DNA from: a virus
Taxonomy: Duplodnaviria; Caudoviricetes
Length of the DNA stretch: 64,000 nucleotides
Reading direction: 5' to 3' (one strand)
IMG/VR virus record: IMGVR_UViG_3300011008_000004
Location: 64,001-128,000 of that record
This document shows positions 12,081-47,347 of this stretch, one piece after another. The translations under genes were made by a program, and so were the position numbers. The notes beneath the pieces are model-generated. The model saw nothing but the letters and a program-made list of their open reading frames with translations. It had not been told where the DNA came from and did not search any database. Position 1 is the stretch's first letter, and every line of letters starts with the position of its first letter.

Positions 12081-13181
12081 TTAATTCATTTTTCTTAAGT
12101 AATCACATATAAAATTATGTATATCACCATTCATAACTGCTTGAATATCGCTAGTCTCAAATCCTGTTCTATGATCTTTCACTAGTGTGTAAGGACAGAA
12201 AACATATGATCTTATTTGACTGCCCCATTCAATTTTCTTTATAGGACCTTTTAAATTTTGAACTTCTTGTAATCGTTCTTCCTCTTTCCTTTCTGCTAGT
12301 AAATTTCTAAGCATACACATTGCTTTTTCTTTATTTTGCAACTGACTTCTTTCTTCCTGACATTCAGTCACTATGCCTGTAGGTTTGTGTAAAATTCTAA
12401 CTTTACTTTCAGTTTTATTTACGTTCTGTCCACCAGCTCCAGATGATCTACAAGTTGTAATTTCTATATCTTCTGGCCTTATAATCATATCACTATCATC
12501 TTCAAGTTCAGGCATAACATCTACTGAAGCAAATGACGTGTGTCTTCTTCCACCAGCATCAAATGGAGATATTCTAACTAATCTATGAATACCCTTTTCA
12601 GCTTTTAAATAGCCATAAGCATTTGTGCCTATAATTCTAAATGATACAGATTTTAGTCCTGCAACTCCATCAGCTAGTCTATCTATTTCTTCTAGTTTAA
12701 AATCTTGTTTTTGACAGTAGCACATATACATTCTATAAAGCATCTCAGTCCAATCACAAGCCTCTGTACCACCTTCTCCTGAATGTAATGTTACTATAGC
12801 ATTTAAGCTGTCATACTTGCCATTTAATAGTGTCTCTAAATGCAATGTATCTACTGCTTTTTCTGACTCTTCAAGCATCTTAGTTATTTCACTTATTATA
12901 TCATCATCTTCAACAATCTCTAGCATTTGAAGTAAATCTATGACCTCAAATAAGGTCTTATGAATACTTTCATAACGATCTACAAGACTTTTTAAATTTG
13001 ATAACTTCTTAGAAATTTCAACTGACTTGGAAGCATCAGACCATACTGCCGGACTTTCTAATCGTTGACAGTACAATTCTATATTATGACGCATATTATT
13101 AAGCTTTTCTTCACTAATAGAGCTATTTAATAAGTCTATAGCCTCATTAGCTCTTTGCTTTAATTCATCAGTTACTAACAT
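12081..13181 (-). CDS. prfB: peptide chain release factor 2
   Basis: [19 protein letters not shown] (SPF peptide anticodon), [17 protein letters not shown]. Confidence 0.96.
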
Positions 13182-43179: not shown

Positions 43180-44055
43180 TTACACTTCGTCTCTTAATAG
43201 ATCATACGTTCCATCACAAAACTTATCTAAAATTTCATCACTAAATTCTTCATGTTCTGCTTTAACTTCTGCTATTGCTTGTTCTCTAGTTTTACCGTCT
43301 TTTTCAATAGCTGTTGAAATATACTCTTGAATTTCATTCAACATTTCATCCGCATACCATCTCTTTAAGATATATGGATCTGTAACAAATGGAACGTCGA
43401 CCTCAGGCTTAGCTGCATTAGACATTAAATAAGCCAATCTTTCAGAAACTTTTTCAGCGTTTTCTACAGGACATTCTCCTAATAATTCATCATGCACAGG
43501 AATTAGTAATTTATAACCAAGATCATTTATTTCTTTATCTTTAAAAATATTAACCATCGCTTTCTTAGTTAAAGATGCTGCACTTCCTTGAATTCTAGCA
43601 TTCGTACATTGTGTCATTGTTTTTGAAATAAATGCGCCATTATCTAAAACGTCAACTCCATTTTCTTTAGCTAATTCTTTAAACTTAGTTTTAGTCTTAA
43701 AACCTTTACCAGCATAGTTAGTATTATATTCATTAGTCCATCTAGCTGTAGCTTCTTTATCTTCAACTTCTAAAAATACATCTTTAGCTTGACAATCTAA
43801 AAACAGATCACAATTAGTACTCACTTTCTTTTTAGCTGTTACTTTAACTTCCGGTAAATTTGCATCAGGTAAGTGTCTACGTCTACCCATATAATCTTCA
43901 ACATAACCTTGTTCTTTAGCAGCTATAGCATTGCCATCTGTAAATTCTTTTATTTTAGGAAACTTTTCATAAAAATTTTTAAGTATTTCTTGGCATTCTT
44001 CATATGAAACCTTTAATTGTTGTGACATAAGATTAGCGCCCATGCCATACATAAT
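43180..44055 (-). CDS. polA: family A DNA polymerase, final exon (motif B end, motif C)
   Basis: IMYGMG, GYVEDYMGRRRHLP, NARIQGSAA, LIPVHDELL. Confidence 0.93.
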   Translation of the reverse strand: MMYGMGANLMSQQLKVSYEECQEILKNFYEKFPKIKEFTDGNAIAAKEQGYVEDYMGRRRHLPDANLPEVKVTAKKKVSTNCDLFLDCQAKDVFLEVEDKEATARWTNEYNTNYAGKGFKTKTKFKELAKENGVDVLDNGAFISKTMTQCTNARIQGSAASLTKKAMVNIFKDKEINDLGYKLLIPVHDELLGECPVENAEKVSERLAYLMSNAAKPEVDVPFVTDPYILKRWYADEMLNEIQEYISTAIEKDGKTREQAIAEVKAEHEEFSDEILDKFCDGTYDLLRDEV

Positions 44056-45245
44056 CGTTTTATTTTAATATTTCTATTAAACCAGACTATCTCATAATCC
44101 TATATTTAGGATTTTACGCACTTCGATTAGTAACAATCTCTAATCTACACACATGTCTGTGTTAGTCGTTACACTTTATCTATGAATTTCCACTTAAAAC
44201 CATAAGCGTGTTTTGCTTTACCTTTACACACAGCTGATATAGCTTTAGCTGATGCTAAGCTAACAGCTATCTTATGTTCAACCAAATATTTAGAAGCCTA
44301 TGTCATAGATTTAAATGTCATTAAAATCTAATTATTTGATCTATCAATCATTGCAACTGATTTACTATTCTTATCTGAAATAATATCTCTAGTATGCTAA
44401 GAATGATGTTTATTAAAGAATGAATTGCGTTCACCCACACGTTGTGAAGCTAATATGCTTAACTTTTCATTCTTTACGCCACTATTCAATCTAGATCTAG
44501 ATCTATTAGTACACTTCTTTAATCCCTTATTAGGCGAAATTCTTCCTTTCAATTTGTTAGATATTTCTAAATTAGATTCATACTAATGATCTAAATTAGC
44601 CTAAAATTGTTTACTACATTCATATGCTTTCTAATATAATTCTAAATCAATATCATCTATATTAAAATCTTGTAAAGACTTACCATGTAATATATAGCGT
44701 ATAGATAAAATATTTTTAGATATATCATCATTAGATTTACTACATAATGCTAAAAAATAATGTGATTTTATATGATCTTTATATAATAAATTCACTAAAT
44801 TATTTTCAGAATTGTCTACATCTAAATTATTAGATATGAAATAATATTTGGGAATTATGTGATGCTAGTTATGTCTATAAGATTCATAATTAGTATCAAT
44901 GTTACTAATAATTAAATTTACATATTCATTTAAGTATTCATTATCAATAAATATATTAGTTTGCAATAATTTGTGTTTTAAGATATCAAAATTTATGTTA
45001 TTCATACACTCTCCTGTATAATTTAGCTAGGTATTGTGTATGTTAACATACATAAATCTTAGCACGGTATTATCTGCTATCCAATCGCTGGACCGTAGAA
45101 TCTCTTACGAAGCTTATTCGCACAAAGTCTTAGTTCACTTCTACCGTTAGCAACTATCACTAGTTACACCTCTTTGTAATCAGAGTTCACGTAATTATTC
45201 GATACACATCACTGTGTAAAGGGGCATTATATAACCTTTCAGTCT
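44056..45245 (-). ncRNA. group I intron in polymerase motif B
   Basis: 5' exon ends GGU, intron ends G; IGS AUAAUGCCC pairs with both exons; R-like GUGUAACGACUA and S-like GAUAGUCU; splicing restores KTLMLG-IMYGMG. Confidence 0.9.
44169..45005 (-). CDS. intron-encoded HNH homing endonuclease with NUMOD3/NUMOD1 (7 TAG)
   Basis: QHHIIP...DNSENNLVNL...H...H; GERNSFFNKHHS; HAYGFKWKF; AGGAG SD; own GCTAAATTA motif. Confidence 0.88.
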
Positions 45246-45511
45246 ACCCAACATTAAAGTTTTACCCTTTTTTCTTAATTGTTTTCCTGCAAAGTTAGGA
45301 GAACCATCTTCCCAATGTTCCATACATTCCCAATAATCTTTATGGACTGCTGGTGCATATATAGTTGCATATGGGTCACGTTTCTCTTCAAATGTTCTTC
45401 TCAATTCTGGATCTTGAGAAAGATGAGTGAATAACCGTGGTTCTTGCGCTGACTTCAGGAAAAGTCTCCTCCCACAATTGAATAATTAATTCGTGTTCTT
45501 AGACTTCTCAT
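45246..45511 (-). CDS. polA: family A DNA polymerase, second cistron first exon (motif A interrupted by 8-nt insert at ~45450-45457)
   Basis: Strong SD AAAGGAGGTGA; MRSLRTRINYSIVGGDFS-TGA-AG-SAQEPRLFTHLSQD...RKKGKTLMLG. Confidence 0.85.
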
Positions 45512-45632
45512 TAGCATCACCTCCTTTAGTACCCTCTTGGCACCATCTAATATTTTAATATCTACAAAATGAATACTCACTTTATAGGTAATTCTACTAA
45601 ATTGTATATATTTTCTTATCTTTCTTTAAATT

Positions 45633-45794
45633 TTATACCTTTTGTTTATACGTAAGCAAAGCTTTTACAGATTCTTCATTATATCTATATTTACCATTTA
45701 TATTAGAATCTATTTTTATCAAACCTTGTTTTACATACTTATACAATGTAGGCTTGCTTATCTTCAACAAATTCATCACTTCTTTTGCTTTCAT
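45633..45794 (-). CDS. 53 aa MerR/HTH_17-type DNA-binding protein (like the IS607 TnpA N-terminus)
   Basis: MKAKEVMNLLKISKPTLYKYVKQGLI; ATG overlaps the polA-N TGA. Confidence 0.75.
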   Translation of the reverse strand: MKAKEVMNLLKISKPTLYKYVKQGLIKIDSNINGKYRYNEESVKALLTYKQKV

Positions 45795-47347
45795 GCTACG
45801 TCCTCTAAGGTTAATTTTATTTTATTTTCTAAAACTTCTACTTTAGTTACCTTATAAAACTCATCATCACTTCCAGTGATAATATCATTTTCTTTTATAT
45901 CTTTTATTCTAACCCATTTATTGTTACACATTACATCTACATAATCATTTAAAATTATTTCATTAGAATCTTCTATATTCTCATCTTTATATTCCGTAGA
46001 TGCTTTAAACATCATTCTCATTGAAGTTTCATGTGAAGGAATCTGTTGTAGATTTGGATTAGTTGAACTAAATCTCCCTGTTCTTACGTTATTATCTTCT
46101 GCACCCATTTGATTAAAGTTAGCATGAAGTTTGCCATCTTTTTCAGAAATACAATTTGGAAGAGATTTAGTAAATGTTTTCATTAAAATACTAAAGTGTC
46201 TATAATCTAATAACGCTTTTGTAAATGGGTGATCTATCGCTTTTAACGCTGCTTTATCAGTAGACTTATTTTCATCTAATGGTTTTATCTTTAATATATC
46301 ATATAAAACTATTTTAAGTTGAACTGGACTTTCATAATTTATTGGATCATCTAATTGTCCTAATGATCTATAACTATCTAACTCTTTCTTATATGGGGCT
46401 AATATTTCATTCATCTTATTAGATGCTTTTTCTAAACCTTTAGTATACTTATCATCTAAACGTTTAACATAATCTACGTCAAGACAAATTCCATCATCTT
46501 CCATTTTAGATGTTACTAAAACTATTGGGACTTCTACTTCACTAAATAACTTGTATAATTTTTCACAGCCCTTCTGCTTAAATAACTCTTCTTGATATTG
46601 TTGTAATTTATAAGTATCAAAAGCATCAATAGCTGCATATAATGCAAATATTTCAGGATCGACCCAAGCATAAGGTAAACCAGTAAATAATTTTTCAATA
46701 TTGTATGAACCAATTGTAGGATCTATATGGGTTTTATATTGAAACTTCAATTTAGCTTGTTCATTTTCATTCATCATTTGAGCTGCTATCATTGTGTCCC
46801 ACCATATTGGAAGATATACACCCATAGTGTTAAAACAAACTCGTATATCAAATTTCCCATTATGATATATCATTTTAGTATTATTATCTTTTAATTTTTG
46901 AAATACTTCCTTTACGCACTCATCTGATACTTGATCTTTTAATCTTTCGTCTGTTCCAGGAACACAGTGATTCATTGGAACATATACTGGTTTTGTATTT
47001 GGAAGATACATACACAAACCCATTAACTTACAAGTTAGTGGATCCAAACTATTATTAGTTTCTGTATCGAATGACAAATAATCTACTGCAATGGCTCTAT
47101 CTATATACTCTCGTAATTCATCATCAGTCCTTATAACCTTAACAAAGTTTTTATATCTTCCTAAAATTTTATAAACTTCTTTTGAGATATAATCGAGTCT
47201 ATCTTCTAGTGGCATACTAGAGATAGACTCTTTCTTTTTAACAGCATGAGTTTTGCCAAGTTTTATAAGTTGAAGACGAATAGCGTCATTATTTATAACA
47301 GGAACTTCAAAATCATCTAGCAATGAAGCTTTTCTAAATTCCGCCAT
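45791..47347 (-). CDS. polA: family A DNA polymerase, first cistron (3'-5' exonuclease, thumb, start of palm) with Hint-like tail
   Basis: FDTET, HNGKFD, YAAID, RTGRFSSTNPNLQQIP, RMMFKAS then ~68 aa KWVRIKDIKENDII tail and TGA. Confidence 0.93.
   Translation of the reverse strand: MAEFRKASLLDDFEVPVINNDAIRLQLIKLGKTHAVKKKESISSMPLEDRLDYISKEVYKILGRYKNFVKVIRTDDELREYIDRAIAVDYLSFDTETNNSLDPLTCKLMGLCMYLPNTKPVYVPMNHCVPGTDERLKDQVSDECVKEVFQKLKDNNTKMIYHNGKFDIRVCFNTMGVYLPIWWDTMIAAQMMNENEQAKLKFQYKTHIDPTIGSYNIEKLFTGLPYAWVDPEIFALYAAIDAFDTYKLQQYQEELFKQKGCEKLYKLFSEVEVPIVLVTSKMEDDGICLDVDYVKRLDDKYTKGLEKASNKMNEILAPYKKELDSYRSLGQLDDPINYESPVQLKIVLYDILKIKPLDENKSTDKAALKAIDHPFTKALLDYRHFSILMKTFTKSLPNCISEKDGKLHANFNQMGAEDNNVRTGRFSSTNPNLQQIPSHETSMRMMFKASTEYKDENIEDSNEIILNDYVDVMCNNKWVRIKDIKENDIITGSDDEFYKVTKVEVLENKIKLTLEDVA

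Follow-up and report, generated by a model that had tools for sequence, protein, structure and literature searches.

The interrupted motif A of polA and its relatives

The window analysed here is a stretch of 64,000 nucleotides (nt) from a virus of the Caudoviricetes (positions 64,001 to 128,000 of IMG/VR record IMGVR_UViG_3300011008_000004), part of a complete phage genome of 214,257 bp with terminal repeats and a GC content of 29.7%. On its minus strand lies polA, the sole family A DNA polymerase locus in the complete genome. The gene is in pieces: it is split into two cistrons, the second cistron carries an insert of 8 nt at codon 18, and an intron follows further down. The insert contains a stop codon and interrupts polymerase motif A, the catalytic Asp of which is encoded in the leader of the second cistron. 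The best explanation for the 8 nt is that they are a non-coding gap, which is probably bypassed by ribosomes. The features around the insert are listed below, with codons named after their putative roles in such a bypass:

45518..45526, minus: Shine-Dalgarno (SD) sequence AAGGAGGTG of the second polA cistron, read from the sequence, 8 nt ahead of the ATG at 45511
45458..45511, minus: leader of the second cistron, 18 codons (MRSLRTRINYSIVGGDFS), ending with the take-off codon TCC (45460-45458)
45450..45457, minus: 8-nt insert TGAAGTCA, made up of the stop TGA (45457-45455), the spacer AG (45454-45453) and the landing codon TCA (45452-45450)
45246..45449, minus: polA exon 2, 68 codons in the -1 frame starting at GCG (45449-45447), AQEPRLFTHLSQD...KTLMLG
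45451..45466, minus: inverted repeat GACTTT-TCCT-GAAGTC with arms at 45466-45461 and 45456-45451, spanning the take-off codon and the stop

The minus strand from 45475 to 45435 reads GTG GGA GGA GAC TTT TCC TGA AG TCA GCG CAA GAA CCA CGG. The zero frame (stop to stop 45455..45625, minus) ends with ...RINYSIVGGDFS at the TGA, and the -1 frame (45195..45485, minus) carries AQEPRLFTHLSQDPELRR...KTLMLG down to 45246. Exon 2 encodes what remains of motif A and continues as far as the first half of motif B. Deletion of the 8 nt yields DFSAQEPR, which has the same length of eight residues as motif A in all ten uninterrupted relatives. The first-pass annotation of this DNA had described both the 8 extra nucleotides with their stop and the restoration of D-F-S-A-Q-E-P-R upon their removal; the former description is exact, and the latter yields the motif that all uninterrupted relatives have in common. 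A Logan contig of run X2 (151 nt, depth 2, maybe from the source sample) covers 45410-45560 with no mismatch and no gap. The second ATG (45511) is taken as the start of the cistron because in the closest relative, L006, a TAA directly follows the earlier ATG.

TGA is a working stop in this genome, where it ends 64 of the 208 minus-strand open reading frames (ORFs) of at least 120 amino acids. The only suppressor tRNAs of the phage are encoded by two tRNA(CUA) genes (G000:C1:2606-2680 and 163136-163233), and TAG is used as a sense codon in many late genes. The phage also encodes a release factor 2 (RF2), and this gene together with the two tRNA(CUA) suppressors fits a reassignment of TAG. The codon UCC before the insert offers no re-pairing at -1 or +2; the sole nearby cognate triplet is the UCA at +8. 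TCC is rare in the genome (71 uses compared to 1,175 for TCT), which, as a speculation, could aid dissociation of the tRNA. The phage genome contains no tRNA-Ser gene.

About 30 related loci were fetched from IMG/VR, metagenome assemblies and GTDB genomes. In ten relatives motif A is uninterrupted and always reads D[FY]S[AQ]QEPR, eight residues; these comprise the unsplit genes of L003, L008, L010, L012, L015, L016 and protein P0004, and the split genes of L013, L022 and L027. Small inserts in motif A of split polA genes were found at 12 loci, in ten distinct alleles and at three positions. They are given here as take-off codon, insert and following codon:

Window: TCC / TGAAGTCA / GCG, after Ser
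L006: TCT / TAACGATCT / GCG, after Ser, stop TAA, 90% identical to the window in exon 2
L002: TCT / TAGGAATCT / CAA, after Ser
L011: TCT / TAGGAGTCA / CAG, after Ser
L001, L009 and L014: TCT / TAGTCT / CAG, after Ser
L025: TCG / TAGAATCT / GCA, after Ser
L038: CAA / TAGTTGTAA / GAG, after the second Gln codon, two stops, landing triplet TAA
L007: GAA / TGAA / CCA, after Glu
L020: GAA / TGAG / CCA, after Glu
Logan contig of run X1: GAA / TGACTGAA / CCA, after Glu

The inserts are 4, 6, 8 or 9 nt long, and TAA, TGA and TAG are all represented. In each of the ten alleles the stop stands directly 3′ of the take-off codon, and without the insert the motif has its eight residues again. In five alleles the insert ends in a triplet identical to the take-off codon, in four this triplet is synonymous and in one it is near-cognate; in the latter (L038) the landing UAA follows a CAA, and the same tRNA-Gln could pair with it via a first-position G.U pair. 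Four alleles (those of 4 and 8 nt) change the frame. Since three stop codons and four frame-breaking alleles occur, codon reassignment cannot explain the set. Reading of TAG as Gln was rejected as an explanation on the same grounds: the window has TGA and a change of frame, and L006 and L038 have TAA.

The sequences downstream of the inserts are under strong purifying selection. Between insert-bearing phages, the ratio of nonsynonymous to synonymous substitution rates (dN/dS) in exon 2 is 0.012-0.14 at dS 0.39-2.4. For the window and L006 the ratio is 0.096 at dS 0.70; for L001 and L014, which have the same insert in common, it is 0.012 at dS 1.55. Upstream, the 18-codon leader is kept as protein across the relatives, with synonymous changes, so that both flanks of the insert are conserved as coding sequence. 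Besides the motif A site, the other polymerase motifs are intact. Sequencing error and gene decay fail as accounts of the whole set, and as such inserts turn up in 12 independent loci, chance or assembly error is ruled out as a general explanation. A pattern scan of IMG/VR returned only two relatives that were already known, and a heuristic genome-wide scan for similar small inserts was too noisy for use.

Proposed ribosomal hopping and alternative explanations

In the proposed mechanism, the ribosome would hold Ser UCC, codon 18 of the second cistron, in the P site and UGA in the A site. The peptidyl-tRNA-Ser would unpair from UCC before release and re-pair with the next cognate triplet, which lies 4-9 nt downstream in any frame; such a stop-hop would cover every allele. 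The product of the window would read ...INYSIVGGDFS-AQEPR..., with INYSIVGGDFSAQEPR as the junction peptide of the hop. In L001, L009 and L014 the 9 nt TCT TAG TCT would specify one residue. Take-off at Ser UCC, followed by UGA, with landing at Ser UCA, as the first-pass annotation had proposed, is the best-supported reading, to judge from the ten insert alleles and the selection on exon 2; the hop itself and its efficiency we infer. We consider the chances about even that natural, frame-independent stop-hops of 4-9 nt make up an entire family here, comprising polA motif A at three positions and the Toprim motif of topA (see below), in which the inserts are scars that protect the DNA of conserved catalytic motifs from homing endonucleases and introns and that survive since ribosomes skip them.

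Several points speak against a hop at these sites. The support is wholly comparative, and the window's own 8 nt are backed by assembled contigs only. Synthetic stop-hops in E. coli have been described as non-programmed and of low efficiency, so that an essential polymerase would need a stimulator or only small amounts of the C-terminal chain. Take-off UCC and landing UCA are not identical in the window, and one tRNA-Ser must read both; the landing triplets are merely near-cognate in L038 (CAA to UAA) and in topA (CCU to CUU). The insert alleles revealed no conserved hairpin or gap SD of the gene 60 type. The matched flanking codons could partly stem from tandem duplication and not from selection, and the in-frame TAG alleles of TAG-recoded phages could be read through.

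Read-through is one part of a mixture of conventional recoding events that might serve these sites if the polymerase tolerated one to three extra residues in motif A, an explanation that we regard as unlikely. The 8-nt alleles would then use a -1 shift, with DFS-LKS-AQEPR as the product of the window (junction INYSIVGGDFSLKSAQEPR, INYSIVGGDFSLK/SAQEPR), the 4-nt alleles a +1 shift leading to DFSAQE-E-PR, and the in-frame alleles TAG read-through leading to DYS-QS-QQEPR. The phage is indeed TAG-recoded with two tRNA(CUA) genes, and TCT TAG TCT CAG resembles a tandem duplication of TCT CAG with a change of CAG to TAG, which is synonymous if TAG encodes Gln. In addition, the alleles of 4 nt qualify in formal terms as +1 sites located at a stop, and the topA relative L033 has the classic shifty stop CCC-TAA-C. 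However, three unrelated mechanisms would be needed for one insert family, and the TAA of L006 and L038 would not be readable in this way. For UCC, UCG and GAA, neither -1 nor +1 offers a cognate triplet; the view of the first-pass annotation that a -1 shift is implausible thus holds, since UCC cannot re-pair at -1. Products with one to three extra residues would also stand against exactly eight in every uninterrupted relative, and the polymerase exons are free of TAG apart from the insert site.

Removal or repair of the 8 nt and their homologues in the RNA, by a micro-intron or by editing, appears very unlikely, since no bacterial intron of 4-9 nt is known, be it self-splicing or protein-dependent. 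The insert ends are not conserved (5′ T; 3′ T, A or G), three different positions are used, and Rfam scans of the window gave no match. This has to be set against the putative group I intron that L019 has at the corresponding phosphodiester, the intron-like sequences in L023 and L026, and the fact that the gene already relies on splicing 200 nt downstream. It is extremely unlikely that the interrupted allele is non-functional, whether as an assembly or sequencing artefact, a defective variant living on helper phages or a decaying gene. Such an origin would agree with the contig-level support and with a single independent contig of depth 2 that is maybe from the source sample, but inserts occur in twelve independent loci from different studies. 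The contig of L006 has a coverage of 35x according to its name, and the N-terminal cistron of L025 is seen on 13 contigs. Downstream dN/dS is 0.01-0.14 at high dS, including the pair L001 and L014 with their common insert, the remaining motifs show no defect, and the complete genome has no other polA locus. Termination followed by reinitiation, yielding a three-piece enzyme, was rejected, as no start codon or SD is present 3′ of any insert.

Natural cases of bypassing found in the searchable literature are limited to T4 gene 60 with its topoisomerase homologues, a Streptomyces phage terminase candidate and the byps of yeast mitochondria. To our knowledge, there is essentially one well-established natural example outside yeast mitochondria, T4 gene 60 and its homologues. 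The gene 60 bypass and the MobA cassette have been described in detail (Huang 1988; Bonocora 2011; Manning & Atkins, bioRxiv 10.1101/2022.08.31.505936). As in T4, an essential replication gene is split here into two cistrons by a mobile insertion, and a non-coding gap occurs close to the start of the second of these (codon 18 in polA of the window, codon 46 in gene 60). In both genes a stop follows the take-off codon directly, take-off and landing codons match, and the gap is placed where it could protect the DNA from an endonuclease. There are also differences: the gap has 4-9 nt instead of 50 nt, the split gene is polA and not a topoisomerase, and the neighbouring endonuclease, where present, is of the GIY-YIG type whereas MobA is an HNH enzyme. 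No conserved counterpart was found here of the take-off stem-loop, the gap SD or the barrier to forward slippage of gene 60, and the inserts occupy three positions, unlike that of T4. Sequence homology to the MobA element was neither detected nor expected; the polA case is an analogue and not a family member.

Stop-hops between matched codons have been established in E. coli with synthetic constructs (Weiss, Dunn, Atkins, Gesteland 1987; reviewed in PMC5009743). TCT TAG TCT in L001, L009 and L014 matches this form exactly, and in the synthetic hops too the P-site tRNA re-pairs downstream in any frame. Those sites are artificial and of low efficiency, whereas the polA sites are natural, conserved and located in an essential gene. 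According to the review by Atkins et al. (2016), no natural in-frame stop-hop is known, and shorter counterparts of gene 60 have long been presumed (PMC5009743). The polA inserts are most likely such a short natural counterpart, as far as can be judged from sequence comparison.

As is proposed for the inserts described here, the byps of Magnusiomyces capitatus are many short non-coding inserts in essential genes which appear mobile or recurrent and are tolerated through bypass. They differ in being 27-55 nt long, GC-rich and mitochondrial, in starting with an unreadable sense codon and in having no link to homing endonucleases. The +1 frameshift of prfB (CUU UGA C) resembles the proposed polA hops in that the P-site tRNA is induced to re-pair in the forward direction by a stop in the A site, and the polA alleles of 4 nt (GAA UGA R) as well as the topA allele with 1 nt in L033 (CCC UAA C) are formally +1 events of this kind. 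Unlike in prfB, GAA cannot re-pair at +1 (AAU), there is no SD 3 nt upstream, the sole cognate triplet is the GAA or GAG at +4, and the window needs +8. In the terminase candidate of Streptomyces phage phiHau3 (PMC10732093), bypass has likewise been proposed for a phage gene in pieces, and mass spectrometry in E. coli supports bypass at a slow codon (PMC10732093). The phiHau3 case differs from polA in its rare UUA trigger, its longer gaps, the proposed regulatory role, the gene concerned and the lack of a homing-site context.

Should ribosomes hop here, the ten alleles would form a natural series on what a ribosome needs for hopping, with lengths, stops and positions varying in one invariant enzyme motif. 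Conflicts between mobile elements could then be settled during translation. Annotation is affected as well: these polymerases come out truncated from gene callers, or their TAG alleles are read through without notice under code 15, so that phage replication genes are mis-annotated.

Homing elements, origin of the inserts and topA

Larger elements occupy the same DNA in relatives. L019 has a probable group I intron of about 326 nt, located at the phosphodiester that joins the Ser codon to the one after it, where the Ser inserts sit. In a focused search of 371 nt, L019:3873-4182 matched the full RF00028 model with 34.6 bits and E 2.5e-7, below the gathering score of 50; the exon ends with AGT and the intron with ..ATGG. 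Rfam scans of the whole loci of L019, L023 and L026 gave nothing at E <= 0.01. Intron-like intervening sequences are present at the same spot of motif A in L023/L024 and L026. Such introns would mark the motif A DNA as a homing site.

The small inserts occur in 12 of the 17 split loci and in none of the seven unsplit loci; these are raw counts of loci that are not phylogenetically independent. The slot between the two cistrons varies in its small or selfish ORFs; it contains an intact GIY-YIG ORF directly upstream of the second cistron in L011 (PF01541, E 1.6e-7) and a 92-amino-acid P-loop ORF in L006, L007 and L020. L011 is otherwise 89% identical at the DNA level to L010, which is unsplit and uninterrupted, and the alignment between the two resumes exactly at the landing codon. 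The X1 virome contig equals the window over 244 nt of exon 2 (window 45200-45443). The match breaks off precisely at motif A, where the contig turns to another upstream sequence; five codons there contain three synonymous differences, and another insert stands at another position. This switch points to a recent recombination exactly at the motif A site.

The locus has the layout of gene 39, mobA and gene 60 in T4, and the small inserts may be immunity scars which destroy the target of a homing endonuclease or intron in the conserved motif A DNA, and only scars that can be bypassed could persist. We infer this origin by the same logic that has been proposed for the mobA/gene 60 cassette of T4 (10.1101/2022.08.31.505936).

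The polA gene of this clade is a hot spot for selfish elements. Four relatives (P0039, P0053, P0082 and P0108) contain an intein at RFS/C...HN/CTNPNLQ, with HNH_3 in two of them. About 20 relatives have forms of approximately 440 amino acids (e.g., P0074) with an apparent further intron site after RFSST(D/N)P. In the slot after the first polA cistron, L021:3584-5584 contains a 433-amino-acid ORF that belongs to no known family and, after it, an IS605 OrfB/TnpB gene, and L026:3551-5062 contains an ORF of 503 amino acids with no Pfam match.

A second case is found in topA of the same genome (at about G000:C1:58350-58440, minus; L032:2393-2440), 5.6 kb before the start of the window, where a TAA lies inside the Toprim motif. 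The gene reads ATG ... GTA GAA TCG CCT TAA CTT AAC AAA, that is MGKLLKYLIIVESP, stop, LNKIKTI (VESP-stop-LNK). The in-frame TAA and the following CTT (6 nt) stand 14 codons after a strong SD and ATG. Among 120 topA relatives, 113 have a continuous VESPxK and 109 have VESPNK, including the 83%-identical P0123, and removal of TAACTT restores VESPNK. At the same spot, the relatives L033/L034 have a 1-nt CCC TAA C, a classic +1 shifty stop, with a NUMOD3 ORF upstream. Because the landing CUU is only near-cognate for tRNA-Pro, the case is weaker than that of polA; even so, it extends the phenomenon beyond this one gene. A scan of viral contigs and a search of G001 yielded no topA relatives.

Proposed signals and further features of the locus

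The first-pass annotation had regarded a hairpin and an internal SD as features of bypassing, and competition with the RF2 of the phage as a possible off-switch for replication. The hairpin GACUUU-UCCU-GAAGUC is present in the window, with a local fold of -5.9 kcal/mol. In relatives its stability varies: L001 has a perfect 7-bp stem of -8.5 kcal/mol, and L006, the closest relative, has almost none (-1.6). In a constraint-matched test, each insert was swapped for all alternatives that keep the stop, the spacer and UCN. The observed hairpins rank at fractions of 0.08-0.91 among these alternatives (window, 0.115). The hairpin gains no support as a selected signal from this test, being no more stable than the alternative inserts. 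For the most part, the pairing arises incidentally from the complementarity between UCN and the GA of GGA-GAC.

GGAGGAG cannot be upheld as an internal SD: it encodes the Gly-Gly-Asp codons, and similar G-rich runs occur in uninterrupted alleles. The gap is too short to accommodate an SD-like sequence some 6 nt 5′ of the landing codon, and none is present. Just 5′ of the take-off codon, the third base is kept in 12 of 13 same-residue codons of the TAGTCT clade, compared to 22 of 46 downstream, and this local synonymous conservation could be a signal of some kind. A recent transfer of the region 5′ of the insert as a whole cassette was rejected: the sliding identity of L001 with L014 and with L009 shows no cassette-wide jump, and the conservation is local, limited to the ~50 nt just 5′ of take-off.

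The window carries an RF2 gene (TIGR00020, 450 bits) whose product reads UGA, the stop in the insert, and the hop might compete with it, so that polymerase synthesis would be switched off as RF2 accumulates. This addition to the hop is quite unlikely to apply, and as a general scheme it fails, since close relatives use UAA or UAG at the same place. G001, a complete phage genome of 123.5 kb with a UAG allele, has no release-factor gene, and the uninterrupted relatives manage without any such switch. In TAG alleles, late expression of suppressor tRNAs could act likewise by replacing hops with read-through. On the wider reading of a family of stop-hops, the choice of stop codon in TAG-recoded phages with RF2 and suppressor tRNAs could tie polymerase synthesis to the reprogramming of termination.

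The remaining features of the locus and the RF2 gene are:

45791..47347, minus: first polA cistron, 518 amino acids (ORF and translation; precomputed Pfam PF01612 and PF00476)
45633..45794, minus: HTH_17/MerR-type ORF of 53 amino acids between the polA cistrons (PF12728, 44.2 bits, E 2.4e-11)
44056..45245, minus: group I-like intron in motif B, 1,190 nt (from the exon junctions)
44169-45005, minus: HNH/NUMOD3 homing-endonuclease ORF within the motif B intron (NUMOD3 match, E 3e-4)
43180..44055, minus: polA exon 3 with the second half of motif B, motif C and the C-terminus (ORF; PF00476, 123 bits)
12081..13181, minus: phage release factor 2, prfB (TIGR00020, 450 bits, cut-off 370; PF00472)

The RF2 ORF is continuous and has no frameshift of the prfB type. 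The first polA cistron covers the 3′-5′ exonuclease and, of the polymerase domain, the N-terminal portion as far as ..SMRMMFKAS; it ends with a beta-rich tail of roughly 70 amino acids (window 45791-46010). The same domain occurs as an in-frame insertion in the unsplit 905-amino-acid relatives P0113 and P0118, which shows that the tail is a real inserted domain and not junk. A split intein was rejected, as both a C/S/T+1 residue and an HN junction are lacking and P0113 contains the tail as a domain in frame. Together, the pieces contain the exonuclease and polymerase domains of a family A PolA, with motif A reading DFSAQEPR after the putative hop and motif B reading RKKGKTLMLG/IMYGMG after splicing. 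The exon junction in motif B, ..KTLMLG/IMYGMGANL, is uninterrupted in the intron-less relatives L011 and L013.

Rfam searches found no credible family, neither in a scan of the whole window at gathering thresholds nor in an E-value scan of 43900-46100; because no match was obtained at the locus, the motif B intron is termed group I-like from its exon junctions only. The stretch 44169-45065 in this intron contains eight in-frame TAG codons, seven of them after the ATG at 45005. The endonuclease ORF of the intron thus has in-frame TAG, in contrast to the polymerase exons, which have none when the insert site of the TAG alleles is left aside. The selfish gene of the intron lies within an early gene and yet appears to be written in the late, recoded code. 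In a blastn search of phage GenBank entries, the sole match was one of 43 nt to the intron core. It covers approximately the first 43 nt of the motif B intron (window 45195-45237), which are 93% identical to the terminase/gp71 region of Brochothrix phage A9-like genomes and probably represent a common intron core.

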